The translations under genes were made by a program, and so were the position numbers. Below, one piece after another: positions 26,057 to 49,696 of a stretch of 64,000 nucleotides of DNA. The stretch lies in the NCBI GenBank assembly GCA_963674595.2, contig CAXXFV010000005.1:1-64000 (forward strand), written 5' to 3'. The notes beneath the pieces are model-generated. The model saw only the letters and a list, made by a program, of their open reading frames with translations, was not told the origin of the DNA and made no database searches. The number at the start of each line of letters is the position of its first letter. The first letter of the stretch is position 1. This DNA comes from a bacterium (GTDB lineage Bacteria > Zhuqueibacterota > Zhuqueibacteria > Residuimicrobiales > Krinioviventaceae).

Positions 26057-26427
26057 CTCGATGGTAAATTTTTAAAATACAAAAACAGTAATTCGCACAT
26101 CGGTTTGTATTTTTTAAGATGATTTAATTTTTTAAAAATAAAAACAAGAGAGGTATTTGTCAGGGATAAACAAACAGTCTTTATTCTACTGAATAATTTT
26201 AGGATGGTAAGAACAGGAATGTGGTTATGGACCGGCACAACAATTTATTCCTCGTATTTGCTTTTAAAACCCATATTATAAAAAGTACTGATTCAGCTAA
26301 AGGACATCAGGAATTCCCGTATTCGACCAAATTGTCCTGAAAACAATCCTTTATATTTGACAGATAATGATACAAATTTTTAATTTTTCCCACAAGTTGT
26401 TTTTAAAAAATTTATATTTTTTTTCTG

Positions 26428-26555
26428 CTTGAAAAGCACACAGGTTTTCTACTATATTATCAAATTATTAAGCCCGTACACCACTCTTTAAAACACCAAA
26501 GCCCCACATATTTGCAGGGCTTGATAAATGATTGAATTCCATTATTATTGGTTTT
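26428..26555 (+). repeat. Dispersed ~125-bp promoter-plus-hairpin motif (copy A of 3)
   Basis: ttgaaa-18nt-tatatt, then aagccc...gggctt hairpin and attgaatt; homologous to 39259 and 40094. Confidence 0.55.
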
Positions 26556-26855: not shown

Positions 26856-27419
26856 CTAGATATTAATACTTAATTGTTCCGAATAAACTTTTATTAATTC
26901 ATTCCAGGGCTGTTTTTGAGATAATAAAGGCCATTTATGACTCGTGGTTGCCAATTGATGCAATGCCTCAAATGTCTTGTTCCCAACATAACGATTAGCA
27001 AATTGAAACACATATCTTCCAATTAAGGCACTATCGATCTCCGGCATATTTCTTAAATTCAACTGAAGAGTCTGTAAAGACATTTGACGCTTCATATAAT
27101 CCTGGTGCCCGGACCGGTTCCATTGTGACGGGCTAATGAGAATATAAGAATCAAATATCTCTTTACAGATCGTCAATTGAGTTTGAGTGACATGGGCATT
27201 CACATCCCATGTCATGTTACTGTTTATGCTCTGCTCATGATCCTCAATCACTGCAAACGCAATATTGTGATGTTGTTTAGTTTTGTATAATCTTTCACTA
27301 TAATCAAGATGTCTAAAATATTTTATTGTTCCGGTGTTTATATATTTACCATACTGGTCCCAGATGGTCAAACCGGTAAAACTACCTGGGGAAATACTCA
27401 CAAATGTCATGTTATTCAT
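26856..27419 (-). CDS. RuvC-like (RNase H fold) paralog, first catalytic Asp replaced by Ser
   Basis: FVSISPGSFTG, AVIED, SPSQWNR, IDSALIG align with the neighbouring gene; start moved to ATG at 27419. Confidence 0.6.
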   Translation of the reverse strand: MNNMTFVSISPGSFTGLTIWDQYGKYINTGTIKYFRHLDYSERLYKTKQHHNIAFAVIEDHEQSINSNMTWDVNAHVTQTQLTICKEIFDSYILISPSQWNRSGHQDYMKRQMSLQTLQLNLRNMPEIDSALIGRYVFQFANRYVGNKTFEALHQLATTSHKWPLLSQKQPWNELIKVYSEQLSINI

Positions 27420-27435
27420 AATCACACCTTTTATT

Positions 27436-28020
27436 TTAATTTTCAAGCCATGGTTTTAATTGATTGACAGTCGGATATGGCAGTTGTTCAAAAGCCATCT
27501 GTTTCATGGCAATAAATCCAGCCCCATTCGTGTCGAAATCAATAATTTCAAAAGTTAGTTTCCCCATAAGAGCTGAATCAGTTTGATGAGAATTGGGCAG
27601 TTGTTCTCCAAATAGATCCCTGGCCCATTGTCGTTTAAATTTATCTTTACATTTATTCCGGTTCCACTGCGTGTGAAAGATTAGGATGTGATCCGGGAAC
27701 ACTTCTTTACATACCTGGATTTGAATTGAGACTTTATATGAGTTTTTTCTTTTCATACCGATAAACGGTTTGTAATCTTCCAGAAGGATAAATTCAAGCT
27801 TGTACTCTTTCTCAATGTGTTCCAGTAACAGTCTGTATTGTTGTGTGTCTTTAAAGGGTAGATTCTTTGAACAAACCTTTGATCCCATACTGTTAAACAC
27901 ACTGATCCCACCGGGATTGCCCGGATCAACCGCACCCCAAAATCTGTTTAAATTCGACATGGTTTCTGTCTTTTGAGATTCCACCAAAGCTGTAATCATA
28001 CTATTCTGTAATCGAATCAT
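27436..28020 (-). CDS. Phage RuvC-like Holliday-junction resolvase
   Basis: WGAVDPGNPGGIS, FILLED, TQWNR, QTDSALMG; sits in a phage replication/recombination module. Confidence 0.7.
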   Translation of the reverse strand: MIRLQNSMITALVESQKTETMSNLNRFWGAVDPGNPGGISVFNSMGSKVCSKNLPFKDTQQYRLLLEHIEKEYKLEFILLEDYKPFIGMKRKNSYKVSIQIQVCKEVFPDHILIFHTQWNRNKCKDKFKRQWARDLFGEQLPNSHQTDSALMGKLTFEIIDFDTNGAGFIAMKQMAFEQLPYPTVNQLKPWLEN

Positions 28021-28034
28021 GTCAAACTCCTTTT

Positions 28035-28574
28035 CTATTTCTCATTGATACTAGATAATTCAATTTTTTTCCATTTTAATTCTCTGGACATCGTATCTGT
28101 CGTAAACTGTTTTTTCTCTTCTACCTTGCGGTTATTTTTATAAGCATCCAAAAAAAGTTTGCGTGTGGCGGCAATGGCAGTGGTGGATCGTATTTCAGGT
28201 CCCCACTGTACAAGAAGAGGATATAAATGCCCTTCACCGTTTTTCTGCATTCGTTTTTCTATCACCATCATCATACAGGAACCAATGGATGGATCATAAA
28301 AATGGTCAAGATACATTTTAATCCGATTCCATGCCACTTGAGCTTGCTGTTGAAGAGGATCCTGTCCCCGTAAATCTGCCGGTGACGGGAAAAAAGCATT
28401 TTTATTTCTAAAATATAAAACAGCATTCTTTTCAATTTCCTTAAAACTCAGGTCCTGTAATATCTTGAAATAAAAATCTATCTTCTCTACGGTCAACGGT
28501 TGTTTATTATTCACAGCAACAGTTTCCATTTGCCACATGAGTTTTGAAAAACATTCTCTATCTTTTTCAGTCAT
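28035..28574 (-). CDS. Phage replication-associated protein (helicase loader/inhibitor-like N-terminus)
   Basis: FYFKILQDLS...FFPSPADLR motif typical of phage genes next to replication initiators. Confidence 0.5.
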   Translation of the reverse strand: MTEKDRECFSKLMWQMETVAVNNKQPLTVEKIDFYFKILQDLSFKEIEKNAVLYFRNKNAFFPSPADLRGQDPLQQQAQVAWNRIKMYLDHFYDPSIGSCMMMVIEKRMQKNGEGHLYPLLVQWGPEIRSTTAIAATRKLFLDAYKNNRKVEEKKQFTTDTMSRELKWKKIELSSINEK

Positions 28575-28738
28575 ATATCAACCTCTATGATAAGACATTA
28601 AGATGTTACCTTTTTATTAATTTCATAATCAATAGATGTTACATCTGTTGATTGATTATTTTTTATCAAATTTCTCAGGCCGTCGTATTTAAACGACGAC
28701 CCGGAGTATTAAAAGAACATGGCAACAAACCAAAATTC

Positions 28739-29149
28739 CTAAAACGGCAGGTCATCTGCCGGTTCATCAGGGAAATTTGTTTGTTGTTCCTGTTCATAGG
28801 TTTGACTGTATTGTAAAATCTGCACCTGTTCTGCTTGTATTTCTGTCATATATTGCTTGTTGCCATCTTTATCATCCCAGGAACGAGTGGCAAGCTTGCC
28901 TTCGATATAAACCAGATCACCTTTTTTAGCATATTGAGAAATCATTTCAGCGGTTTTTCGCCATATAACGACACGATGCCATTCTGTTTTTTGGACAATT
29001 TCTCCGTCCTGGGATTTATAGGATGTATTGGTTGCCATGTTTAACGTCACAACAGCCACCTCGGAATTGGTGTATTTGATTTCCGGGTCTTTACCTAATC
29101 GACCGATTAACATGACTTTGTTTAATGTTGCTTTACTATTGTATGCCAT
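28739..29149 (-). CDS. ssb: Single-stranded DNA-binding protein
   Basis: NKVMLIGRLGKDPE, TEWHRVV, IEGKLATRSW, C-terminal DDLPF. Confidence 0.95.
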   Translation of the reverse strand: MAYNSKATLNKVMLIGRLGKDPEIKYTNSEVAVVTLNMATNTSYKSQDGEIVQKTEWHRVVIWRKTAEMISQYAKKGDLVYIEGKLATRSWDDKDGNKQYMTEIQAEQVQILQYSQTYEQEQQTNFPDEPADDLPF

Positions 29150-29154
29150 TTTTA

Positions 29155-29871
29155 TTACCTCACTCGTATATCATCTTTTGAATAAACTCTAATGCCTTGA
29201 AATTTATCAACAGCATCTTTTTTTAATTTTTGTACTTGAGCGTTAATTTTTGAACGGGACGGTTCGCATAGTTCCGGGTGATGTTGACACACCAGGTCCG
29301 GATCTGTTATGTCATATTTCCAGTAGGTCACAACACTTGAAGTCGCCTGAATGGATTGAACCGATGATTTTGCGACAATCTCCTGACTTGCTACATGTTT
29401 GACAGCTTTATCCAGTGCCTGCTTTGTTTCTTCATCACCCGCAGCTTGTTTGGCTTGTTCAAGTTCTTTGATTTGTTGTGCTTTCTCTGCTTTTAAACGT
29501 TGTTCTTCTTTGTGTTTTTTCCCCTTTTGATATGCCAAAAGTTTTGATCGCAGCATGCCATTCAGCTTTTCAACTTCATTTGTTAAATTTTTAAATGGCT
29601 GCTCTTTTGTTTTTATCTGTTCCTTTAATTCTTTTACCGATTCTTTTTTAGCACTATCAAGGTACTTTATAAATTTTGATATTTTTCCGGTATAATCGGT
29701 CACCTCAAAAATAGTAGCATCATCAACCGTTATATCGACAACTGTTAACCGAATGTCTGTATATGTTGAGATGATCATTACGTCATCTATTTCTGCCAAC
29801 TCCGGTAACGCTTCTGCTTCAATGACATCAGGTACACCATTCAAAATGCTGTCGAAAAAATCATTTTCCAT
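29155..29871 (-). CDS. Phage coiled-coil hypothetical protein of the recombination module
   Basis: Long helical region, C-terminal WKYDITD...GIRVY; lies between annealase and SSB. Confidence 0.55.
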   Translation of the reverse strand: MENDFFDSILNGVPDVIEAEALPELAEIDDVMIISTYTDIRLTVVDITVDDATIFEVTDYTGKISKFIKYLDSAKKESVKELKEQIKTKEQPFKNLTNEVEKLNGMLRSKLLAYQKGKKHKEEQRLKAEKAQQIKELEQAKQAAGDEETKQALDKAVKHVASQEIVAKSSVQSIQATSSVVTYWKYDITDPDLVCQHHPELCEPSRSKINAQVQKLKKDAVDKFQGIRVYSKDDIRVR

Positions 29872-30745
29872 TATCCGTCTCCTTTTTCTCTTGTTGAACC
29901 TGCTGCATTCTCTCTTTTAACTTTTGCAGGAAAAAGTTTTGTTTTTTCTTGTCTATTTTTTGGGCTGTTGTCACACCCATATCCTCAAGCATTTTTAAAT
30001 AAATGGTGTGCGTTCCTGTCTGTTTAAAAAGCCACTCTTTGGCATTTTTACATTTGTCCTCAAAGGACGGTTCAGTTTTTGATTTTTGATCAAGTTGATT
30101 GTTATTAACAGAATCACCGTGCGTGTTATTGTTTGAAATCTCATAGGGCCAGCCATATTGAGGATAGTCTTTGCGCCGCCACAACAAAACTTTATTATTA
30201 TCTCTTTTATCTGTATACCATTCACTAATAGCAAAGTCTTGTTTCCATTCCATGATAAAATTGGGAGACCACAGTTCTGTAGCAATTCCCAAATCTTTAC
30301 AACATCGGGTCAGACAATCTGTTTTGGCTCCTTCAACAGCACTGGCATAGGTCATGGACTTGTTGTTCGGATGGTATTTCTGTTCTCCGACAGCTTCAGA
30401 TATAAACTGTCCAAGAACAAATAAAACCCCGTGATAACAGACCAGATTGATGTTTTTGTCATAAAAAATATTTCGACTATACAAGGCCCATCCACCAGCA
30501 TGAAAAGCTTCAATTAATCTTTTACGATAAAAAACACCCGGTAAATAAATAATGCCATCGGGCCGGATGGCAACATCGTTTTTATCTATTTCAGCAGACA
30601 ACTTTCGTTGAACCTGATCTGTAACAGGATTCTCAGCAATGTTATTATACAGATCGATTTCACAATTTTCCTGAACTGTCACTTCTTTATTTTGGTCTGA
30701 CTTTATTGCCAAAGCAACTTGAGATTGATTTCCATTTCCATTCAT
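29861..30745 (-). CDS. Rad52-superfamily single-strand annealing protein, Mgm101-like
   Basis: IRPDGIIYLP..YRKRLIEAF..GGWAL and EGAKTDCLTRCCKDLGIATELW match the Mgm101 core as recalled. Confidence 0.8.
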   Translation of the reverse strand: MNGNGNQSQVALAIKSDQNKEVTVQENCEIDLYNNIAENPVTDQVQRKLSAEIDKNDVAIRPDGIIYLPGVFYRKRLIEAFHAGGWALYSRNIFYDKNINLVCYHGVLFVLGQFISEAVGEQKYHPNNKSMTYASAVEGAKTDCLTRCCKDLGIATELWSPNFIMEWKQDFAISEWYTDKRDNNKVLLWRRKDYPQYGWPYEISNNNTHGDSVNNNQLDQKSKTEPSFEDKCKNAKEWLFKQTGTHTIYLKMLEDMGVTTAQKIDKKKQNFFLQKLKERMQQVQQEKKETDNGK

Positions 30746-30753
30746 GATTCACC

Positions 30754-31020
30754 TCAAAAATTTAATTTATCCTGATCTGTAAATCCTATTTGCATATTCT
30801 CAATGATTTGATTCATAAGGATTTCTTTGACATCCATATTGGAATAGGCTATTTTGACAGCACCTTGTAATGCCACCATTCCAATAGAATTGTTCCCACC
30901 AAGTATGATTTGTGCAAGAGACACAATATCATGATCAATGGTAATGTCGATGTTTAAATTCTCTATCAGCATTTTTGCTGCTGAGACTTGTCTCTCTTTT
31001 GAAGGATATTTTTTTCCCAT
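30754..31020 (-). CDS. Phage hypothetical protein
   Basis: 88-aa ORF with GGAG RBS, co-oriented with the module. Confidence 0.55.
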   Translation of the reverse strand: MGKKYPSKERQVSAAKMLIENLNIDITIDHDIVSLAQIILGGNNSIGMVALQGAVKIAYSNMDVKEILMNQIIENMQIGFTDQDKLNF

Positions 31021-31187
31021 TTCTAATCTCCAGTAATAATTGTTAAAAATATTATGGCCATGTTTTACACGTAGCCTGACATCATGCCGCTACTATGTTG
31101 CACCGATACTTTTTCCGCTTTAGGTTCTCTCCGGTGCTGAACACTAAACAAGAATTTTTATGTAATTTATCATAGCTATATTAAAAT

Positions 31188-31451
31188 TTACATCCATGTC
31201 TCAAAGAGTCCTGATGCCGGGTCATACTCTATATCAAACATCCTCTTACAATAGCTGATGGGACATTTTATAGAGTCTGTTGCTCCGGTTTGAACCTGTT
31301 CTACGATTTCAGAATCCAAATATCCATCCACAACAGTACCACAATGCGGACAAATAATATGAAAAGCTTTTGTGTCGATTTTTTCCTTTTCAGGAACATC
31401 AAAAGGAGCCACAAATAACGGATTCGTGTCCATGTCATCATGATACATCAT
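31188..31451 (-). CDS. Small Zn-ribbon-like phage protein
   Basis: CPHC...CPISYC; start moved to ATG at 31451 after a GGAG RBS. Confidence 0.55.
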   Translation of the reverse strand: MMYHDDMDTNPLFVAPFDVPEKEKIDTKAFHIICPHCGTVVDGYLDSEIVEQVQTGATDSIKCPISYCKRMFDIEYDPASGLFETWM

Positions 31452-31800
31452 CAGTATCTCCGTCTCTTTGACGTTTACTGGTATGATCATACAAGTACAA
31501 ATCTTCACAACCCATGATGTTTCTGGCCATACGAAGCCATCTTAAACGATTAGCTTGTCTGATTAAATTGGATATAATCCGAAAGTCTCCGGCATCTATC
31601 GGTGTCCGGCCCCCTTTACATAAATTGTTTAATCGCCCGATTGTCATTTTCGCTTCCTGAGCAAACCATTCCCTGGTCAGTTGTTTATTCTGTGAGATAC
31701 AATCCTTGATAGCATTATCGATTTCTGATGCAATAAACCGAAACAGTTTCTCTTCTGCTGTTGAGAGTGTATCTTGTTTTTCAAATTGTCTTTCTTTCAT
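31438..31800 (-). CDS. Putative HTH protein (Cro/CII-like)
   Basis: LTREWFAQEAKMTIGRLNNLCKG HTH-like segment; first gene of the leftward operon. Confidence 0.5.
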   Translation of the reverse strand: MKERQFEKQDTLSTAEEKLFRFIASEIDNAIKDCISQNKQLTREWFAQEAKMTIGRLNNLCKGGRTPIDAGDFRIISNLIRQANRLRWLRMARNIMGCEDLYLYDHTSKRQRDGDTDDVS

Positions 31801-31837
31801 TTTCTACTCGCTTTTTTACGTGGTTTTATAATTGATG

Positions 31838-31869
31838 ATTAATTTTTGCACATTCCTGCAAAAATTAAT
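31838..31869. promoter_or_regulatory. Perfect 13-bp inverted repeat upstream of the leftward phage operon (candidate operator or hairpin)
   Basis: attaatttttgca-cattcc-tgcaaaaattaat. Confidence 0.45.
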
Positions 31870-32517
31870 GGCACTGCCCATTGAAAAAACCATTCACCCA
31901 TATTATATTGAATTGTCAACTTTTAAAAAATGAGGTCAATTATGAAAGCAAAGAAAAGAGAACCTGTTGAATATACACTGAATTTAAGCTGTGAAATCAA
32001 CTTTGATTTATTGAGGATTATCGAAGCGGCATGTATTTTTCAGAAAGCTTTTATTTCTTTATTGTTAAAAGACAAGAATTTCACTATCTTCAAATACAAA
32101 GGCTGCTCAGGTGCTTATGTTGATATTCAACAGGCTCTTTGCAGTTCTTTTACGTCACCCTCTGGTTTGCAACGTTTGGCGACTGAACAGACCAGGGGGT
32201 TTTATTTTAATTGACCTGAAAATTCAACTTAACAAGGATCACGAATTTTCAGACGAGAGCAATTTTCCATTATAGTTAAATGCTCTATTGTTTGAATGTC
32301 GTTCTGACAGATCAATTGACTAAATGACCTCTTATTTATTATTGATTTTAAATGTTTTTTTCTTTAAAATAAAAATCAGCATAACCATATAAAAATAAAT
32401 GTGTACGGAGTCTGTTCCCGGTCCGCAGAGGGTCACCAAATTATAGGATTAAAAATTAATATATCCTATCGTACACATTGCACCATAGTTTAATTAATGT
32501 TATTATAAGTAGTTAAC

Positions 32518-32925
32518 ATGACAATGGCAAGCAAAGATTATAATAATCACATTTTTTTTGAAAATCTTTTACATCTATGCAAAGAGAAAAATTGGTCCCC
32601 AAACAGATTGGCAAAAGAAACACATGTGTCAGCTTCTTTTATTTCAAAAATTAAAAATATGGGTGCACATTCATCAAATACCCTTTTATTAAATTTGTAC
32701 AATATTTTTTCAGACGAAACCAAAATATTAAATCCGTTTTGGCTTTTTTATAATGAAGGTCCGCAATATCTCTACTTGAAAAAAGAAAATATTTTAAAAT
32801 CAGATCCTCTTCAAAACGAACCGGATCAAATTGTTCAGACTGTGAAAAAGATCCGAACCCTGCCTAAAGAAAAACAAGATTCCTTATTACAAATTATTAA
32901 TGGATTTATTACATTTAATAAATAA
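32518..32925 (+). CDS. XRE-family HTH repressor (CI-like)
   Basis: WSPNRLAKETHVSASFISKI, LNPFWLFYNEG; divergent from the phage early operon. Confidence 0.75.
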   Translation: MTMASKDYNNHIFFENLLHLCKEKNWSPNRLAKETHVSASFISKIKNMGAHSSNTLLLNLYNIFSDETKILNPFWLFYNEGPQYLYLKKENILKSDPLQNEPDQIVQTVKKIRTLPKEKQDSLLQIINGFITFNK

Positions 32926-33346: not shown

Positions 33347-33482
33347 TACATATTCCAGAGCAAAATTGCCACCAATTCCAGTGAAAACTGCCACCATGAT
33401 AAATTAAAATTGTCAAAATGTTTGGATTGTTCAGTACTAAACTTTCAGCCGAAATCACTGGCAGGCTTTATAAGAACACACA
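33347..33482. mobile_element. IS21-like MITE (copy 1 of 5)
   Basis: tacatattcc...tgccacc x2...tggcagg...agaacacaca; same core at 35287, 39499, 42117 and 42461. Confidence 0.6.
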
Positions 33483-33841
33483 GTAAGATTCAGGCTGATA
33501 GTAAAAATGACCTGAAATGGGGAATTGAGTTAAAAGAAGAACAATACAAGTCAAAGGTTTGAAGCCTTTAATTTAAAATTAATTTGTTAAACAGGGTGAA
33601 AAAACAATAAAATTTTAAAGACAGCTTAATATTATTTGTGTTAATTATGGCTTTTCTCATATTTCCCTTGAATTATTACAAGACCTGGTTTAATTGGCTT
33701 AAATAAAAACAATTGTTCTTATACTTTTACTTTTGTATAATAACAACACAGATTATACAATTATGGCACTATTCATTAAAAAACATTATGCAAAAAAATA
33801 GATATGACGATTTAGATTTGTATACTTGAGAAAACTTTGCT

Positions 33842-34880: not shown

Positions 34881-35228
34881 TGTCAGGGGATACATCAAAG
34901 TGTACCACCTTTAAACCGGAAAAATAATAGATTCTTCCGTATAAAAACAGGAGGATCTGTAAATGGCGAACAGGTTAAAGATGGTGCAAAAAGTCCTTTT
35001 TTTACAAAACTGGTCTATTCGTAAGATCAATATAGTAAAAGAGATACGCCAAAAAACATTACAACATATTGAGATGAGTGGCAACATCTTCAAAAGGAAG
35101 CGTCTCAATCAGGTAAAAAAGCTTCTGCACTAAAGCCGCCTACAAAAAAAGGCACTTGTCATCTAAGTGTACCACCCAGACGAAAAAGTGCCCACCGATA
35201 AAGTAGCACACTTTCAAGTACCCCTGTC
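34881..35228 (+). mobile_element. Internally deleted IS21-family element with truncated istA
   Basis: Left end tgtcaggggatacatcaaagtgtaccac; GGAGG then MANRLKM..WSIRKI from 34963; right end gtagcacactttcaagtacccctg. Confidence 0.65.
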
Positions 35229-35286
35229 TTGTGCATAATTATTATAAAATTGCAATGAATGGAGATTCCATGAGAAAAATTTTCTG

Positions 35287-35400
35287 TAAACATTCCAGCT
35301 CAAAACTGACACTATGATAAATTAAAATTGTCAAAATGTTTGGATTGCCCAGTACTAAACTTTCAGCCAAAATCAGTGGCAAGTTTTATCAGAATATGCA
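35287..35400. mobile_element. IS21-like MITE (copy 2, shorter)
   Basis: Shared core gataaattaaaattgtcaaaatgtttggattg; ends agaatatgca. Confidence 0.6.
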
Positions 35401-39402: not shown

Positions 39403-39498
39403 TAAACTTGCTATATTTTAAAGGACATAAAGACAAGCACTTTGTATATTATAAACCAAAGGAGGTGTCCACATGACAAACAGAAGACGACGCTATAC
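39403..39498 (+). mobile_element. IS3-family-like left end with first codons of orfA (copy 2)
   Basis: taaacttgctatatttta...ggaggtgtccacATG, reading MTNRRRRYT from 39473. Confidence 0.6.
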
Positions 39499-39634
39499 TA
39501 CATATTCCTGACCAAAACTGCCAACAATCCGTTTGAATACTGCCACCATGATAAATTAAAATTGTCAAAATGTTTGGATTGTCCAGTACTAAACTTTCAG
39601 TTTGAATAAGTGGCAGGTTTTATCAAAATATAAA
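39499..39634. mobile_element. IS21-like MITE (copy 3)
   Basis: Same core and termini as 33347. Confidence 0.6.
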
Positions 39635-39764
39635 TGTACTTTAGTATTTGATTATAAATAGGTTATCTCTCACAATTCAAAACTATAGCCACATAAGTAG
39701 CATAACTCCACATTTTCCTTAAAGCTTCAATTATTTGACAGACAGTATAATTCTGTTTACCCAT
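39635..39764 (-). pseudogene. Decayed 5' fragment of a phage-type HTH gene (terminase small-subunit-like)
   Basis: Manual translation MGKQNYTVCQIIEALRKMWSYATYVAIVLNCER*PIYNQILKY. Confidence 0.5.
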
Positions 39765-39769
39765 TATGG

Positions 39770-40073
39770 ACCAGTGTCAAAAATGTAAAAAATGTAAAAA
39801 TACCACCCTTTAATCGTTATTCCTTGAAGTGAAAAAGGTGAATCCAGGATCTCCATTTCCGATTATGACCTCTGCTCTCTCCCGATAACAGCGATAAAAG
39901 CCTACCAGTGTATAAAGTGTGTAAAATTAGGAAACTTTCGGTTTTTGATTTATAAAACTTTGATCCTTACATCCATTTCCGATTATTATCTCTGTTCCCT
40001 CGCGATGACAGTTATAAAAGCCTACCAGTGTCAAAAATGTAAAAAATACCATTCTTTAATCGTTATTCCTTGA
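39770..40073. repeat. Mini-array of ~2.5 units of the 42726-46735 repeat
   Basis: accagtgt at 39770, 39904 and 40024 with the same constant block. Confidence 0.9.
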
Positions 40074-40093
40074 ATCTATAATTTCTTTCCCAC

Positions 40094-40320: not shown

Positions 40321-41481
40321 TTAGTAAATCTGTACACTGAATTTACAGTTGAAACCTGGTTTATTTATTATCTTCATTTCACTGTTTAACTGTTTAATTA
40401 GTGATTTGATTATTAACATACCAAATGAATTGCTTGATTCAAAATCAAATCCTTCAGGAAGCCCAACCCCATTATCTTCGTAATGTATGGACAATCGTTT
40501 TAAAGATGTTGATGATATCTTAATTTTGATATAAGGTCGCTCAATCGAATGAAAAGCATATTTGATCGAGTTTGTCGTTAACTCTGCGATAATTAAACCA
40601 ATAGGAAGCATCTGTTCTTGATTGACGATAATATCATTAGCATCAACAATCAAATTAATATCACTTTTAGTAAGATTGGAATCAATATGCCCACACAATT
40701 CAGTTATATAATCTTTAATTGAAATGCTCGATGTATCTTTGGACATATATAGTTTTTCGTGAATAAGGGAGATTGCAGTGATGCGATGTGTAATGTCACC
40801 TAAAATACTCAAAAATTCACTTTCATTGTTTATTTGTTTTGATTGAAGACGAATAGAGCTTATTAATACATTAAAGTGGTTTTTAATTCTATGATGTATC
40901 TCACGTACTATTAAATCAGTATTAGTAAGTTTATCCTTTAATTCTTCATAAAGCGTTAGCTGATTTAAATCTGACTCTATAATGCTTTTAAATTCTTGCA
41001 AAATATCGATATATAATTTTGAATATTCATTTTCTTTGTTATCCAGAACACAAAAAGTGCCAAATATTTCACCGTCATTCCATGTTATTGGAAATCCCAG
41101 ATAGGAAATCATATTTAATTTTATATCAGGATTACTTTTCCAATATTCTGATTCCAGTGCATTTTTTACAAGTAAGTCTCTTCGTTTACCAACAACTGTT
41201 TCACAATACAAGCCCAGCCCCAGCACCTCAGAATCATTTTTATGATATGGGTTCCCTTTTGTATGACTGCTTGCATAAACTTCAATTCGGTCTTTTTTTA
41301 ATTTCATAATGAGTGCTGACGGCACATGTAATAGTTCTGCGATTAAATCAAGTATCTTTTGCCATTTTACTTGTACATCGTCTGGTATCTCTGGTTTGCC
41401 CAAAGATGTGATAGGTACAATTATTCTGGCAGCTTCTTTCTCAACTTTAACTTTAGAATATTGATTTTTATTTACAGACAT
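40321..41481 (-). CDS. GAF-domain sensor histidine kinase (HisKA_2)
   Basis: GLYCETV, SYLGFPI..FGTFCVLD GAF; EIHHRIKNH; ELTTNSIKYAF; DNGVG. Confidence 0.9.
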   Translation of the reverse strand: MSVNKNQYSKVKVEKEAARIIVPITSLGKPEIPDDVQVKWQKILDLIAELLHVPSALIMKLKKDRIEVYASSHTKGNPYHKNDSEVLGLGLYCETVVGKRRDLLVKNALESEYWKSNPDIKLNMISYLGFPITWNDGEIFGTFCVLDNKENEYSKLYIDILQEFKSIIESDLNQLTLYEELKDKLTNTDLIVREIHHRIKNHFNVLISSIRLQSKQINNESEFLSILGDITHRITAISLIHEKLYMSKDTSSISIKDYITELCGHIDSNLTKSDINLIVDANDIIVNQEQMLPIGLIIAELTTNSIKYAFHSIERPYIKIKISSTSLKRLSIHYEDNGVGLPEGFDFESSNSFGMLIIKSLIKQLNSEMKIINKPGFNCKFSVQIY

Positions 41482-42021: not shown

Positions 42022-42365
42022 TAAACTTGCCATATTTTAGTGGACACAAAGTTAAGCACTTTTTATATTATAAACCAAAGGAAGTGTCCACATGAAAACA
42101 AAAGACGACACTATACTACGTATTCCTGACCAAAATTGCCACCCATTCCAGTGAATACTACCTCCATGATAAATTAAAATTGTCTAAAGGTTTGGATTGT
42201 CCAGTGGTAAACTTTCAGCCGAAATCAGTGGCAGGCATTATCGTGGAATACATAGTCGGATTCAGGTTGATAGTAAAAATGGTCTGAAATGGGAAATTGA
42301 GTTAAAAGAAGAACAATACAAGTCAAGGATTTGAAACCCTTAATTTAAAATTAATTTGTTAAACA
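42022..42365 (+). mobile_element. IS3-like left end (42022-42116), IS21-like MITE copy 4 (42117-42254) and a tail shared with 33483-33593
   Basis: Direct sequence similarity to the other copies; MITE termini tacgtattcc / ggaatacata. Confidence 0.6.
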
Positions 42366-42590
42366 TAAACTTGCTATATTTTAGTGGACACAAAGTTAAG
42401 CTCTTTTTATATTATAAACCAAAGGAAGTGTCCACATGAAAACAAAAGACGACACTATACTGCGTATTCCTGACCAAAATTGCCACCCATTAATACTACC
42501 ACCATGGTAAACTAAAATTGTCAAAATGTTTGGATTGTTCAGTGGTAAACTTTCAACTGGAATCAATGACAGGTTATATCAGAATATAAA
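42366..42590 (+). mobile_element. IS3-like left end (42366-42460) and IS21-like MITE copy 5 (42461-42590)
   Basis: Tandem second copy of the 42022 composite. Confidence 0.6.
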
Positions 42591-42720
42591 CGTACTTTAG
42601 TATTTGATTATAAATAGGTTATCGCTAACCATCCAAAACCATGTCCACATAGGTAGCATGACTCCACGTTTTCCTTCAAGTTTCAATTATTTGACAGGAA
42701 GTATAATTCTGTTTACCCAT
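42591..42720 (-). pseudogene. Second decayed copy of the phage-type HTH gene fragment
   Basis: MGKQNYTSCQIIET*RKTWSHATYVDMVLDG*R*PIYNQILKY. Confidence 0.5.
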
Positions 42721-42725
42721 TATAG

Positions 42726-45700
42726 ACCAGTGTCAAAAATGTAAAAAATGAAATAATGTAAAAATACCATCCTTTAATTGTTATTCATTGAAGTGAAAAA
42801 GGTGAATCCAGGATCTCCATTTCCTATTATTATCTCTGCTCTCTCCCGATAACAGCCATAAAAGCCTACCAGTGTATAATATGTAAAATAATGGACAACC
42901 TTATCTGTTTTTAGATATAAAACTTTGATCCTTATTTCCATTTCCGATTATTATTTCTGTTCCCTCTCGATGACAGCCATAAAAGCCTACCAGTGTCAAA
43001 AATGTAAAAAAACCATCATTTAATCATTATTCCTTGAAGTGCAAAAGGTGAACCCGGATTTTCCATTTCAGATCATTACCTGTGTTCTCTCCCGATAACA
43101 GCCATAAAAGCCTACCAGTGTGTAAAATGTGTAAAATTAGAAAACTTTCTGTTTTTAGATATATAAAATTTTGATCCATACATCCATTTCCGATTATTAT
43201 CTCTGCTCTCTCGTGACGACAGTTATAAAAGCCTACCAGTGTGTAAAATGTGTAAAATGTTTAAAATTAGAAAATTTTCTGTTTTTAGATTTATAAAACT
43301 TAAATCTATACATCAATTTCCGATTATTATCTCTGCTCTCTCCCGATAACAACCATAAAAGCTTACCAGTGTGTAATAATTGTAATAATAGACGATTTTC
43401 TGTTTTTAAATATATAAAACTTTGATCCTTATTTACATTTCCGATTATTATCTCTGCTCTCTCCCGATGATAGCCATAAAAGCCTACCAGTGTGTAATAT
43501 GTAAAATAATGGACAACCTTATCTGTTTTTAGATACAAAATTTTGATCCTTACTTTCATTTCCGATAATAATCTCTGTTCCCTCCAGATGCCAGCCATAA
43601 AAGCTTACCAGTGTATAATATGTAAAATAATAGACAACCTTATCTGTTTATAGATATAAAACTTTGATCCTTATTTCCATTTCCGATTACTATATCTGCT
43701 CTCTCGCGATAACAGTTATAAAAGCCTACCAGTGTGTAAAGTGTGTAAAATGTAAAAATAGACAACTTTCTGTTTTTAGATATATAAACTTTGATCCTTA
43801 TTTCCATTTCCGATTATCATCTCTGTTCTCTCCCGATGACAGCGATAAACGCCTACCAGTGTGTAAAATGTGTAAAATGTTTAAAATTATAAAATTTTGA
43901 TCCATACTTTCATTTCCGATTATTATCTCTGTTCCCTCGCGATGACATCCATAAAAACCTACCAGTGTCAAAAATGTCAAAAATGTAAAAGTACCATCCT
44001 TTAATCGTTATTTCTTGAAGTGCAATAGGTGAACCCAGGATCGCCATTTCCGATTGCTATCTCTGTTTCTTCCCGATGACAGTTATAAAAGCCTACCAGT
44101 GTGTAATAATTGTAATAATAGACGACTTTCTGTTTTTAAATATATAATACTTTGATCCTTATTTCCATTTCCGATTACTATCTCTGTTCCCTCACGACGA
44201 CAGACATAAGAGCCTACCAGTGTATAATATGTAAAATAATAGAAAACTTTCTGTTTTTAGATATATAAAACTTTAATCCTTATTTCCATTTCCGATTACT
44301 ATCTCTGATCCCTCGCGATGACGGAAATTAACGCCTACCAGTGTGTAAAATGTGTAAAATGTATAAAATTAGAAAACTTTCTGTTTTTAGATTTATAAAA
44401 CTTTGATCCTTACTTTCATTTACGATTGTTATCTCTGTTCTCTCGCGATGACAGCAATAAAAGCCTACCAGTGTATAATATGTGAAATAATAAACGACTT
44501 TTTGTTTTTAGATGTATAAAACTTAAATCTATAAATCCATTTCCGATTATTATCTCTGTTCCCTCGCGATAACAGCCTACCAGTGTGTAAAATGTGTAAA
44601 ATGTATAAAATTATAAAATTTTCTGTTTTTAGATTTATAAAACTTAAATCCTTACATCCATTCCCGATTATTATCTATGTTCCTTCCAGATGACAGGAAT
44701 AAACGCCTACCAGTGTATAAAATGTGAAAAATGTAAAAATACCATTCTTTAATCGTTATTCCTTGAATTGCAAAAGGTGAATCCAGATTGTCCATTTTCG
44801 ATTATTATCTCTGCTCTCTCCCGATGACAGCTATAAAAGCCTACCAGTGTATAATATGTAAAATAATGGACAACCTTATCTGTTTTTAGATATAAAATTT
44901 TGATCCTTATTTACATTTCCGATTATTATCTCTGCTCTCTCGACGACAGCGATAAAAGCCTACCAGTGTGTAAAATGTATAAAATTAGAAAACTTTCTGT
45001 TTTTAGATATATTAAACTTTGATCCTTACACCCATTTCCGATTATGATCTCTGCTCCTTCGCGATGACAGCCACAAAAGCTTACCAGTGTGTAAAGTGTG
45101 TAAAATGTCAAAAATTAGACAACTTTCTGTTTATAGATATAAAATTTTGATCCTTATTTACATTTCCGATTATTATCTCTGCTCTCTCGACGACAGCGAT
45201 AAAAGCCTACCAGTGTGTAAAATGTATAAAATTAGAAAACTTTCTGTTTTTAGATATATTAAACTTTGATCCTTACACCCATTTCCGATTATGATCTCTG
45301 CTCCTTCGCGATGACAGCCACAAAAGCTTACCAGTGTGTAAAGTGTGTAAAATGTCAAAAATTAGACAACTTTCTGTTTATAGATATAAAACTTTGATCC
45401 TTATTTCTATATCCGATTACTATCTCTGCTCTCTCCCGGTGACAGCTATAAAAGCCTACCAGTGTATAAAGTGTGTAAAATTAGAAAACTTTCGGTTTTT
45501 GATTTATAAAACATTGATCCTTATTTCCATTTCCGATTATTATCACTGTTCCTTCCCGATGTCAGCGATAAACGCTTACCAGTGTAAAAAATGTGAAAAA
45601 TGTGTAAAATTAGACAACTTTCTGTTTTTAAATATATAAAATTTTGATCCATAAATCCCTTTCTGATTATTATCTCTGTTCTCACCCGATGACAGTTATA

Positions 45701-46735
45701 AAAGCCTACCAGTGTGTAATAATTGTAATAATAGACGACTTTCTGTTTTTAAATATTTAAAACTTTGATCCTTATTTCCATTTCCGATTATTATCTCTGT
45801 TCCCTCGCGATCACAGCCATAAAAGCCTACCAGTGTATAATAATTATAATAATAGACGATTTTCTGTTTTTAAATATATAAAACTTTGATCCTTATTTCC
45901 ATTTCCGATTATTATCTCTGTCTCTCCCGATAACAACCATAAAAGCCTACCAGTGTATAAAATGTGAAAAATGTAAAAATACCATTCTTTAATCGTTATT
46001 CCTTGAATTGCAAAAGGTGATTCCAGGATCGCCATTTCCGATTATTACCTCTGCTCCTTCGCTATGACAGTTATAAAAGCCTACCAGTGTCAAAAATGTA
46101 AAAAATGTAAAAGTACCATCCTTTAATTGCTATTCCTTGAAGTGAAAAAAGTGAACCCAGGATCGCCATTTCAGATCATTATCTCTGTTCCCTCGCGATG
46201 ACAGTTATAAAAGCCTACCAGTGTCAAAAATGTAAAAAATGTAAAAATACCATTCTTTAATCGTTATTCCTTGAATTGCAAAAGGTGAATCCAAGATTTC
46301 CATTTCCGATTATTATCTCTGCTCTCTCGCGACGACAGCGATAAAAGCCTACCAGTGTATAAAGTGTGTAAAATTAGAAAACTTTCTGTTTTTAGATATA
46401 TAAAACATTAATCCTTACATCCATTTCCGATTATCATCTCTGTTCCCTCGCGATCACAGCCATAAAAGCCTACCAGTGTATAATAATTATAATAATAGAC
46501 GATTTTCTGTTTTTAAATATATAAAACTTTGATCCTAATTTCCATTTCCGATTACTATCTCTGTTCCCTCCAGATGACAGCTATAAAAGCCTACCAGTGT
46601 GTAATAATTGTAATAATAGACAACTTTCTGTTTTTAGATTTATAAAACTTTGATCCTTACATCCATTTCTGATTATAATCTCTGTTCCCTTGCGATGACA
46701 GCCAAGAAGCCTACCAGTGTATAAAGTGTATAATA
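42726..46735. repeat. Non-coding modular tandem array, 32 full units (mostly 121, 130 or 134 bp)
   Basis: 33 copies of accagtgt counted by hand from 42726 to 46713; constant block ccatttccgattattatctctg...gacagccataaaagcctaccagtgt. Confidence 0.95.
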
Positions 46736-46736
46736 T

Positions 46737-46770
46737 AAAAAAAGGCCGGAAAAATTTTCCCGGCCTTTTT
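46737..46770. terminator. Bidirectional rho-independent terminator
   Basis: aaaaaaaggccgg-aaaaattttc-ccggccttttt, between the array and the 3' end of the 46793 gene. Confidence 0.85.
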
Positions 46771-46792: not shown

Positions 46793-49114
46793 TTATTTAA
46801 CATAAAATAATTTTTGTAACGATCTGTATCCCGGGGTTTTCATTTCTATAAAGTACACGCCTGTCGACAACAATTGGTTGTGTGAATTTAAACTGTTCCA
46901 TATTAACCGGTGCTGACCGGCCTGTTGTTCACCATTATAAAGAGTCTGGACTTTTTGTCCCAATGTGTTATAAACAGTCAAGGTGACATGTTCACTCTTT
47001 GGCAATGAGTAGCTGATAACAGTGGAAGAATTGAATGGATTTGGATAGGGCATTGACAATTTATACTGATCCGGAGTTTGCATAGTAACGGTAACCGTCT
47101 CCGAATAGGTGCTGCTGCCGTCCAGGTCTGTCATCTTTAAACGATAACTGTTTGTTTGGTCCGGGGAATTATCTGTAAAAGAATAGTTCTGTTCCTGTGT
47201 TGATGTGCCGGCTGCTTTTTCAAATCCGATTTGCTGAAATTTATCTCCTACTTTTTTTTCAATATAAAAACCAAGGGTATTGGACTCTGTTGCTGTTTTC
47301 CAGTTCAGAATAACGGAATTTGATTCGGTGGTTTGCGCGCTAAAAGAGACCAGCTCTACAGGCACTACCGATCCGGTTGATAACATGGAGGTATTGCCAT
47401 TAGCATCTGTAACGGTTGCTGTGGCATGACTTTGTGATATGGTGCCGTTCCATGTAAAGTTACCTGTTGCACTGGATGTTGTTTTTCCCAAATAGGTTTG
47501 TGCCTGGGTCCCATTATCGGAAAACAACTCGACTGTGCTGTTGGCGATTGTCGTACCGGTAATTGTTGTCTTGTTGGCACCGGTGATTTGCGGGGCAGGA
47601 ACTAATGCATTGAGTCCGGTTTGGATAAGGATGGCAAATTCACCATTATTATAAATGGAATTTTGAGAAATGGTATTGTTTATGGTATCTTCTCCTTTTA
47701 TCCAGATGCCATAGTAACCATGTCCGGTTATAACATTATTTGTACCGATAAAATTTTGACTTGCCCCTGAAAAGAGCATAATCCCCGTATCATATCCTGA
47801 GATCAGGGTTTGGGTGGCGTTTGTGCCGAGATAATTATTTTTAATGGTTGTATTAAAATTACCAGCACCAGTCATTTTTATAGCCGCGTAGGACAAGTCC
47901 GGTTCCATATTCTGACCGACGATGACATTCCCGGGACCGATTATGTTACCATCCGGCAGGCCGCCTTTAGCTTCAGGCATAATCACCAGTCCGTTACCCG
48001 TGTTGGGGACAACGGTTGAACCATCTGCACTGCTGCCGATATAATTGTTTTCCATCACTGTATTGTGTGCACCCCTGATTTCAACGGCATTGGAGGTGTT
48101 TCCTGAAAGAACATTGTTTTTAATTTTTGTGCCGTCTGCAATATCTACGATCCAGATGGCACCTTCACCGTTCGGCAATGCGGTTTGTCCGTCGGCACCG
48201 ACACCGATATAATTGTATTGTATAAGATTATTATCTGTGCCTTCATCTTTGGCATCTTTGATAATAATAGCCTGGCGCCCGCAGGCACACATGACATTCC
48301 CGGAGTCCGGAGTGGAACCGCCGACCTGGTTTGAGTAACTTCCGTTTCGGATATACATACCTGCCCAGGGACCGCCATAGGTTACATCTACGCCCCAACC
48401 AATAGGCAATTCTGATATACCGGATTTGTTTACACCGATATAGTTACCGATGATTTTATTATCATGTACATTTAAAACCATTTCTATCGCTTCGTAATAA
48501 AACCCACCCATAATATTTCTATCCTCACCGACGCCGCCGATGACATTATGATGGGCGCCTTCCCGGATATTAACACCGTTACTTTTCTGTACAACATAAG
48601 ACTGATTGCCGTCCGGATCAGTACCGATAAGGCATCCACGGATGATATTATGGTGTGCGTTTTCACCTTCAATCCAGAAATGATGGGCACGAAATTTACC
48701 GATACATATTCCCTCTATGGTGTTATAGGCGGAATAAATACTGATTGCCGGCAATTCGACCGGAGAACGGTTGCTGAGAATAACAATTTCCAGACCGTCT
48801 GCGTTGGTATTGCCGATATTTCCGGCCTGACTGTGACCGTCGATATGTGTGTTATCATCCGTAATATCCGGCAGGGCTGTTGTACATTCAATTTCAAATG
48901 TTCCGCTGCTTGCTGAATAATTAGGATCGCTTGTTGGTATGGCAAACTCAATCGTATCTGCACCGGGATTGGCGGCTGCCTGGGTCATGGCCCATGTTAA
49001 TGATCCGTTTCCTGTCTCATTGGTATTTGTGACCGTGTAGGTATTTGCCGACAGGATTGCCGGGAGTGCCAGCATTATTAAAATTGATTTTATGTTTTTA
49101 ATAACAAAAGACAT
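46793..49114 (-). CDS. Secreted parallel beta-helix protein with C-terminal sorting (T9SS type A/FlgD-Ig-like) domain
   Basis: Signal peptide after GAGGG RBS (ATG at 49114); repeated NxIxxNYIG; VPVELVSF; PNPFNSST..GVYFIEM tail. Confidence 0.8.
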   Translation of the reverse strand: MSFVIKNIKSILIMLALPAILSANTYTVTNTNETGNGSLTWAMTQAAANPGADTIEFAIPTSDPNYSASSGTFEIECTTALPDITDDNTHIDGHSQAGNIGNTNADGLEIVILSNRSPVELPAISIYSAYNTIEGICIGKFRAHHFWIEGENAHHNIIRGCLIGTDPDGNQSYVVQKSNGVNIREGAHHNVIGGVGEDRNIMGGFYYEAIEMVLNVHDNKIIGNYIGVNKSGISELPIGWGVDVTYGGPWAGMYIRNGSYSNQVGGSTPDSGNVMCACGRQAIIIKDAKDEGTDNNLIQYNYIGVGADGQTALPNGEGAIWIVDIADGTKIKNNVLSGNTSNAVEIRGAHNTVMENNYIGSSADGSTVVPNTGNGLVIMPEAKGGLPDGNIIGPGNVIVGQNMEPDLSYAAIKMTGAGNFNTTIKNNYLGTNATQTLISGYDTGIMLFSGASQNFIGTNNVITGHGYYGIWIKGEDTINNTISQNSIYNNGEFAILIQTGLNALVPAPQITGANKTTITGTTIANSTVELFSDNGTQAQTYLGKTTSSATGNFTWNGTISQSHATATVTDANGNTSMLSTGSVVPVELVSFSAQTTESNSVILNWKTATESNTLGFYIEKKVGDKFQQIGFEKAAGTSTQEQNYSFTDNSPDQTNSYRLKMTDLDGSSTYSETVTVTMQTPDQYKLSMPYPNPFNSSTVISYSLPKSEHVTLTVYNTLGQKVQTLYNGEQQAGQHRLIWNSLNSHNQLLSTGVYFIEMKTPGYRSLQKLFYVK

Positions 49115-49172
49115 GTTCCCTCCAAACAAAGAGTGATGAGTTAAATGATTAATAAATTTAATAAAACGCATT

Positions 49173-49448
49173 TCAATAGATTTCATCATGATGACCTACG
49201 TTTACGAGAATGATTTCTTTTTCAGTAATATAAAATTCTAATACAATTCGATATGAAATGTTTATTGATACGGAATATAGTTTGTTAAATTTACCCTTTA
49301 ATTGATGCAACCTAAGGGATGGATGGTCGGGATTCATTTCTAAAATTTTTAATGTTTTTTCATATTGTGAAATTATTTCCGGATGCTTTTTTAAAAATTT
49401 GGATGCTCTTTTGATATAACTGTACGTATAAACAAGTTGATATGTCAT
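49173..49448 (-). CDS. Type II toxin, RelE/ParE/YafQ superfamily
   Basis: HPSLRLHQLKG, SINISYRI, VGHHDEIY. Confidence 0.85.
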   Translation of the reverse strand: MTYQLVYTYSYIKRASKFLKKHPEIISQYEKTLKILEMNPDHPSLRLHQLKGKFNKLYSVSINISYRIVLEFYITEKEIILVNVGHHDEIY

Positions 49449-49696
49449 TTTGTTACTCGTTGAACATGTTCTTCAACAGATTCTGTAACAAAATTTCCGG
49501 CTTTATAATCGGCCTCTGTTTCGCGTAAAGCAGCATCAAGTTCACATTCACGGAGATAATTATAGTATTTCATATCCATAACGACAAATTTTTCTTTACC
49601 ACGAACAGTAATTACCAATTCGCTATTGTCTTCAAGATTGCTCTCTATAGCAGATATACCTTTTGTTTTTAATTGATTGGCTGTTATCGTATTCAT
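49445..49696 (-). CDS. Type II antitoxin, Phd/YefM family
   Basis: ITANQLK, VITVRGKEKFVVM; ATGA overlap with the toxin gene. Confidence 0.85.
   Translation of the reverse strand: MNTITANQLKTKGISAIESNLEDNSELVITVRGKEKFVVMDMKYYNYLRECELDAALRETEADYKAGNFVTESVEEHVQRVTK

Follow-up and report, generated by a model that had tools for sequence, protein, structure and literature searches.

Phage packaging sites are the closest described relatives of the locus reported here. In phage SPP1 the direct repeats of the pac site span promoters and the start of terS, the small terminase gene, and pac sites of the SPP1/SF6 type consist of direct repeats at the promoter region or start of an HTH-type (helix-turn-helix) terS, vary between related phages, and occur once in the genome of an active phage (PMC4737164, in excerpt). 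Terminases also begin headful packaging at pac-like chromosomal sites, which cos phages do rarely, and in pseudo-pac packaging, lateral transduction and SaPI island-mediated transduction a chromosomal pac-like start moves adjacent DNA one way, the start being one of several single dispersed look-alikes or a prophage's own site (PMC6687093, in excerpt). Ectopic copies of the lambda replication origin block lambda growth (PMC4488673, in excerpt), and elements that carry several oriT sites have a wider helper range (PMC11389934, in excerpt). Judged from titles and the starts of abstracts, searches of the literature gave no description of a packaging-site array of the kind that follows, and the excerpt of PMC13434031 does not describe one.

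The window (the whole stretch of DNA that was analysed, 64,000 nucleotides) contains two tandem arrays, each directly upstream of a 5' fragment of terS:

42727..46735, minus strand: main array, 32 units and a final partial unit
42583..42720, minus strand: terS pseudogene, 5' fragment comprising the HTH part, with three stops (tblastn 43% over 46 aa)
39771-40075, minus strand: second, short array, about 2.4 units long and made up of a B unit, an A unit and a truncated B unit
39636..39764, minus strand: terS pseudogene, 5' fragment, with one stop (tblastn 53% over 43 aa)

The earlier note on this DNA made no mention of the short array and the adjoining terS pseudogenes. The array is phage-derived and a candidate variant of known pac-type cis elements. 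It shares with the SPP1 and SF6 sites the placing of variable direct repeats before an HTH-type terS, but here there are 36 chromosomal copies, of several alleles and without an intact terS. Where pseudo-pac, lateral and SaPI starts are single, these are tandem, allelically diverse, true homologues beside a terS pseudogene that would likewise move neighbouring DNA in one direction. Like hitcher elements with several oriT sites and phage satellites, the array would depend on cis-only motifs held in common with a helper, with several alleles widening the range, although their multiple sites are oriT rather than pac and we found no integrase, att sites or replication origin here. Like lambda origins on a plasmid, extra copies of a phage cis-site would compete for the phage's own protein; that decoy is an engineered, high-copy replication origin, whereas this one is natural, chromosomal and a pre-terS site.

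Exact matches to the 7-mer CCAGTGT, of which the main array has 33 (the first at 42727, the last at 46714), divide it into 32 units of 106-142 bp, most often 121 bp (14 units), 134 bp (5) or 130 bp (4), and only 4/32 lengths are multiples of 3 (120 bp three times, and 126 bp), in agreement with the earlier description of the units. The array's TRF score is about 3000, and no other non-coding tandem repeat listed by TRF for this genome is as long. By eye the 32 units fall into four module classes (7 B, 13 A, 6 C and 6 D), and they follow the aperiodic order that had been reported, B C B A A D C C A A B D ... D D B B B A D D. One class A unit, unit 10, carries a deletion. Units within a class are 85-88% identical. 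Neighbouring units are no closer to each other than random pairs (likeness 0.825 vs 0.831), and same-class adjacency, 12 against 8.1 expected, is not significant (p 0.07). Both arrays together hold 36 sites and 80 boxes.

The main array is real, and this is confirmed. The earlier note had named collapse of the array as an assembly artefact as a reason to abandon it; a collapsed-repeat artefact is argued against because only one pair of units in the main array (u19 and u21) is identical, and because array pieces are present in contigs of sequencing runs from three further studies (two clear, one sparse). These pieces carry different letters and other junctions, and unit junctions absent from this array occur in runs X3 and X7, in one low-depth contig each. 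Run X1 is a possible source sample and was left out of this count, the word shares of X7 and X8 are small, and in X4 much of the main array is uncovered, a hole that is no proof of absence.

The origin of the units is seen by comparison with the rest of the 6.6-Mb genome, where BLAST and nhmmer searches give two clear matches outside the arrays, C10:54529 and C3:119365. At each, the matching DNA separates a formyltransferase gene (PF00551) from a 134-aa HTH gene, after which comes a large terminase gene (phrog_675, E 3e-73; PF05876), with portal and major head genes further along at C10. The genome thus holds two intact terS-terL loci of this phage family, in prophages that persist beside the arrays, as well as many decayed copies of the phage. 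The 134-aa HTH gene is the phage small terminase gene: its product has a weak phrog_309 match and an HTH_8 match, is predicted to form an HTH and a long helix, has fold matches in BFVD that include one annotated TerS (E 3e-5), and has a homologue annotated TerS in Flavobacterium phage 1/32, while a fold search of the PDB gives nothing at E 0.001 and only generic HTH proteins. TerL follows terS in 21/23 relatives tested; these come from a hand-picked set of 24 among 81 viral loci, in which one has no downstream ORF and 18 were chosen because they have doublets.

Unit 5 is identical to both intact prophage junctions at 39/39 bases, and outside the arrays the triple-box pattern occurs in the 6.6 Mb only at those 2 places. 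The first 22 bases of the resident junction recur unchanged in 5/36 array sites, among which there are 14 different 22-mers. The part of the units free of boxes aligns in register with the end of the formyltransferase gene, for class B with p 0.001 against shuffles and 0.001-0.002 against random genome pieces, and for the other classes with p 0.003-0.014. With a 5' terS fragment immediately after each array, a unit on the minus strand reads as the decayed 3' end of the formyltransferase gene, its stop region, two or three 9-bp boxes, an invariant core and, last, the place where terS would begin. These alignments demonstrate, at the level of sequence, that each array unit is a decayed copy of the phage formyltransferase-terS junction. 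The earlier note had called class B essentially unrelated to A, C and D, and module against module this holds (p 0.14-0.21, not significant), but B and A/C/D align in register with the same phage segment and so are alleles of one locus.

More than one phage contributed to the array. The TerS cluster has five close members, whose differences are almost confined to the N-terminal arm and the recognition helix. The terS pseudogene immediately downstream of the main array begins MGKQNYT and has the N-terminus of the P0031 allele type (MAKQNYT) rather than that of the resident phage (MAENIFT); the pseudogene immediately downstream of the short array is 74.7% identical in DNA to the C10 locus over 95 bp. 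In the same way, the translation of module B, IGNGDPGFTFFTSRNND, resembles the end of formyltransferase P0160, IGNGGDPGFTFYTSRSNF, and is unlike the resident IGSGGDGFQYVTSKNSY. TerS P0031 and formyltransferase P0160 each come from a 94,542-bp contig of another assembly, presumably one and the same. Other units carry the resident phage's boxes. Because module B and the pseudogene resemble a foreign variant while unit 5 is the resident site, a cassette of formyltransferase tail, boxes and TerS arm is evidently swapped within the family, and comparison of the alleles shows that the array mixes cassettes from at least two phage variants. Sources for modules A, C and D were not found, and searches with the formyltransferase in viral contigs and with P0031 in metagenome contigs gave no relatives. 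The hybrid units and the shuffling by recombination that had been proposed are borne out: 136/231 informative column pairs fail the four-gamete test, a duplication of two units is seen (u18-19/u20-21), and boxes and modules form hybrids.

The surroundings of the arrays are made up of the following features:

46793..49189, minus strand: flanking gene for a secreted beta-helix protein with a FlgD/Por-secretion tail
46737-46770: hairpin resembling an intrinsic terminator, with A and T tails (-28 kcal/mol, minus strand)
42366..42587: leader of the main array, an IS left-end remnant (IS3-like) joined to the right-end remnant of another IS (IS21-like)
42022..42242: third, partial copy of the IS-end leader, without a terS fragment
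40321..41481, minus strand: GAF-HisKA_2 histidine kinase between the two arrays, cargo associated with them by position only
39403..39631: leader of the short array, with the same two IS-end remnants
26856..32925: early-gene module of the same phage family (repressor, Mgm101/Rad52-type recombinase, SSB, helicase loader, two RuvC-like ORFs)

The names IS3-like and IS21-like are a reading of flanking ORFs, with no library match. The segment 42366-43038 duplicates 39403-40074 at 86.7% identity, and the duplication is old. The hairpin at which the array had been said to stop is there; it closes the convergent end of the gene at 46793-49189 and bounds the array. The stop at a terminator would suit a processed non-coding RNA array, one of the functions first proposed, and the cassettes, being variant alleles of one phage locus, would suit a silent donor for phage diversification. 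We consider either very unlikely: the terminator is accounted for by the flanking gene, the units have a mean folding z of about 0 on both strands with a consensus structure of none on the plus strand and -2 kcal/mol on the minus strand, Rfam gives 0 matches to the array, and donor cassettes would lack the TerS arm that would need swapping along with the boxes. An integron attC or REP array was rejected in view of the units' absence of a hairpin signal and of an inverse core in the alignments. The array is not CRISPR, as had been stated, its repeat part being 85% identical and its modules reused, and a scan of 29 window ORFs shows no cas gene; the genome's true CRISPR arrays lie elsewhere and are built of unrelated repeats, and 138 extracted spacers, some of them from REP-type arrays, have no match to the prophages or the array among the matches listed.

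The earlier note had described a constant block of about 58 bp in each unit. A block common to the units exists, but it is only 85% identical between them and is their most mutated part, and what is invariant within it is only TACCAGTGT, a 9-bp core unchanged in 34/34 internal junctions, with its last 8 bases present at 36/36 sites. This invariance is not an effect of the splitting, since there is no double-length unit. Outside the core the shared block has 63 alleles in 51 columns, whereas the core has 0 against 9.9-10.6 expected from base-specific rates (P about 3-5e-5), 0 singletons against 4.4-5.6 expected (P 0.004-0.012), and a column permutation p of 1.5e-4; these values are overstated because units are related and columns are not independent. 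Translation does not explain the core, for the units lack coding constraint in every frame of the minus strand (pN/pS across the frames 0.45-1.44, in keeping with the earlier view of the array as non-coding), the position of the terS start codon is not conserved in them, and the adjoining terS fragments, with 2 synonymous and 12 non-synonymous differences and 70-73% identity to the phage after the arm, drift neutrally.

Minisatellites and VNTRs in decayed prophages arise, as here, by head-to-tail amplification in a phage relic with unequal exchange. The copies in such minisatellites are nearly identical, unlike the units here, which are 15%-diverged mosaics drawn from two or more phage alleles and keep a sharply invariant core. 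It is nevertheless possible, though we think it doubtful, that the array is a functionless minisatellite of this kind, in which slippage and unequal crossing-over, seeded by the 9-bp boxes, multiplied the pre-terS DNA of a dead prophage, and ordinary recombination with other prophage copies supplied the further alleles. The setting is junk-like (IS-end remnants, stops in terS, a duplicated leader), the units lack codon constraint, and, besides many decayed phage copies, the genome has further non-coding arrays in tandem (C17, C29) and a different dispersed element linked to phages, present in at least 53 copies. Substitutions are not spread evenly over the unit as neutrality would have them, however, and the sharp core is precisely the part in which the units equal the intact phages, whereas the pseudogene next to it has diverged from them by 27-30%; retention of the array in contigs of other studies, with other letters and junctions, also speaks against this account.

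A selfish array driven by cutting would need no benefit to host or island: terminase would cut the units, and repair against sister units or prophages would amplify them, shuffle them and homogenise the core. This would account for the mosaicism, for resident boxes imported into units with foreign tails and for the invariance of the core, and the family encodes single-strand-annealing recombinases (an Mgm101 match). We regard it as improbable, since diversity does not fall gradually towards the core, where invariant TGT and AA positions interleave with variable ones in the manner of a binding motif, and repeated cuts in the chromosome would presumably fall in a cell already committed to lysis.

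The boxes also have counterparts across the phage family. Among 52 non-redundant viral relatives (drawn from 81 loci after removal of those with <200 nt upstream, no start codon or >70% identity), 18 have direct-repeat doublets of 8-10 bp in the 35 nt before terS. Shuffles give 1.4 (maximum 5 in 300), and the doublet rate is 5.9% at 222 other ORF starts and 0-8% in the windows alongside. As in known packaging sites, then, the repeats lie at or just before the 5' end of terS and are enriched there in the family, and their sequence varies from phage to phage. The exact box doublet was found at 22 loci in viral contigs, 0 of them beside a terS relative.

A place within 40 bp of the terS start is also operator-like, and the boxes might be a late-operon operator or promoter (for TerS autoregulation, another regulator or DnaA) whose array titrates the regulator without starting packaging. 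The main array has 21 boxes that fit a relaxed DnaA consensus. Sigma-70-like sequences number 71 where 40.7 would be expected, and most of them are two weak patterns that recur. Yet no box is a strict DnaA box, a cluster of DnaA boxes being rejected for want of a high-affinity consensus, the doublets differ between phages in a way that a host protein would not require, and 36 sites would probably be few against an abundant late protein, so that we see little prospect for titration.

The reading that we favour, tentatively and at somewhat less than an even chance, is that terminases of several phage variants recognise the array and are drawn by it to package chromosomal DNA, the array acting as a decoy or as a hitchhiker. 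Of the functions first proposed, a protein-binding platform is the best supported, with phage TerS as the candidate protein, and a selfish or neutral satellite is its live rival. The array is a tandem, recombining collection of pre-terS control segments with alleles of two or more phage variants, in which the 9-bp boxes and the core form a putative pac site or operator recognised by the helix-turn-helix small terminase. On induction of, or infection by, a family member, terminase might load on the 36 chromosomal sites with their 80 boxes, which is the least certain step. Packaging of host DNA would then begin in the terS direction, towards lower coordinates, and take up in order the histidine kinases, the early-gene relic and the polysaccharide cluster. 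Proheads wasted in this way would amount to defence, and spread of the array and its linked DNA to hitchhiking. Several box alleles would give a wider range of helper variants, and selection for that range could keep the core while the rest decays. The more specific proposal is of a cis-only, protein-free library of packaging sites on the chromosome, collected from several variants of one phage family, that diverts the terminase of each onto host DNA and so acts as anti-phage decoy and transduction hot spot; recombination would keep it up to date with changes in the phage's TerS arm and boxes. We consider this possible but rather less likely than not.

Several results weigh against a terminase-recognition array. 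No significant co-variation links the boxes to the recognition helix (partial Mantel, partial r 0.04, p 0.26, 31 relatives) or, in the same 31, to the TerS arm (p 0.14), doublets fall below threshold in 34/52 relatives, and the DNA-binding domain of SF6 TerS has little specificity for pac repeats (PMC4737164, in excerpt). When an HMM of the box-free modules is run blind over the whole genome, the formyltransferase end is not among its matches. Sources of A, C and D are missing, and intact prophages of the family persist in the genome. TerL has a GpA-type ATPase and its nearest cultured relatives are <26% identical, so that the packaging type is not readable from them, and if the phage is of cos type, single sites would transduce poorly (PMC6687093, in excerpt). 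The array is found in a single lineage, which fits a neutral origin and counts against a packaging function: its box pattern occurs in 0/166 other genomes of the phylum (none of the same genus), and TRF finds no arrays of pre-terS units at 94 terS loci, the flanks there being at most 3-6 kb and all the genes intact. Array DNA gives just three weak matches of 42-63 bp, in 2/60 relative genomes, and the core pattern is absent from the viral and the metagenome contigs searched; these collections may omit records of this genome or very near ones.

The early-gene module at 26856-32925, 7 kb from the arrays and downstream of them in the terS direction, has the gene content of a satellite, with regulatory and replication genes and without structural genes; it has no integrase and no parB-formyltransferase-terS-terL block. 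Contig C5 has no integrase match, no flanking (att) repeats surround the array element and the window contains no tRNA genes; a classical phage satellite or PICI-like element was rejected for the lack of its own integrase or att sites, a lack that weighs against the favoured reading too.

If the units are terminase sites, they would represent a natural, DNA-only interference with, or exploitation of, phage packaging that is broad across variants; if they are neutral, they would still be a clean record of the swapping of a phage specificity cassette among variants. The 14 box alleles, the four alleles of the TerS arm and helix and the pre-terS doublet of the family form a test set for how HTH small terminases choose their own genome, and those arm and helix alleles sit on an almost constant protein.

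The phage family from which the window's 32-unit array derives is represented in the 6.6-Mb genome holding the window by one apparently complete prophage together with many partial copies, and its copies are distributed over five contigs as follows:

C10, about 22000-67400
C3, 1-11000, 27800-42700, 77900-84000 and 111900-132400
C9, 119100-149600
C25
C26

Large blocks of cargo, in the form of CRISPR-Cas loci, secreted proteins and defence-like ORFs, lie within the partial copies, and in several copies of the family the large terminase (TerL) is broken off at an identical position near residue 55.

Five close small terminase (TerS) sequences, P0001 and P0030-P0033, are alleles ~90% identical to one another, their differences falling in the N-terminal arm and the recognition helix. 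From these sequences, the variable arm and helix are a candidate for a swappable cassette that would set packaging specificity. Across the family, as seen in the terS loci of viral relatives (L031-L110), doublets of 8-10 bp with a phage-specific sequence lie within the 35 nt directly 5' of the terS start codon.

Between the terL and portal genes of a prophage on C3 we identified by eye an integron-integrase-like gene (L013, 115820-116812), which is immediately preceded, within the prophage, by one copy of a 230-bp element. This element is dispersed in at least 53 copies, one of them at 26186-26435 of the window. Other repeat arrays in the genome are:

C3, 108318-111843: CRISPR array of 48 repeats with an exact duplication of a 10-spacer block
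C17, 82637-86768: long non-coding tandem array of 19 REP-like units of 76 bp
C29, 170610-172303: long non-coding tandem array of six 279-bp units

The CRISPR array adjoins cas1 and a long reverse-transcriptase-like ORF.

Two further kinds of feature are found in the window itself:

33347-33680 and 35226-35400: additional remnants of IS ends, like those that make up the array leaders, on either side of a RhuM/Fic gene
49173-49696: toxin-antitoxin pair (Phd/YefM antitoxin, RelE/YafQ-like toxin) close to the island's right-hand edge
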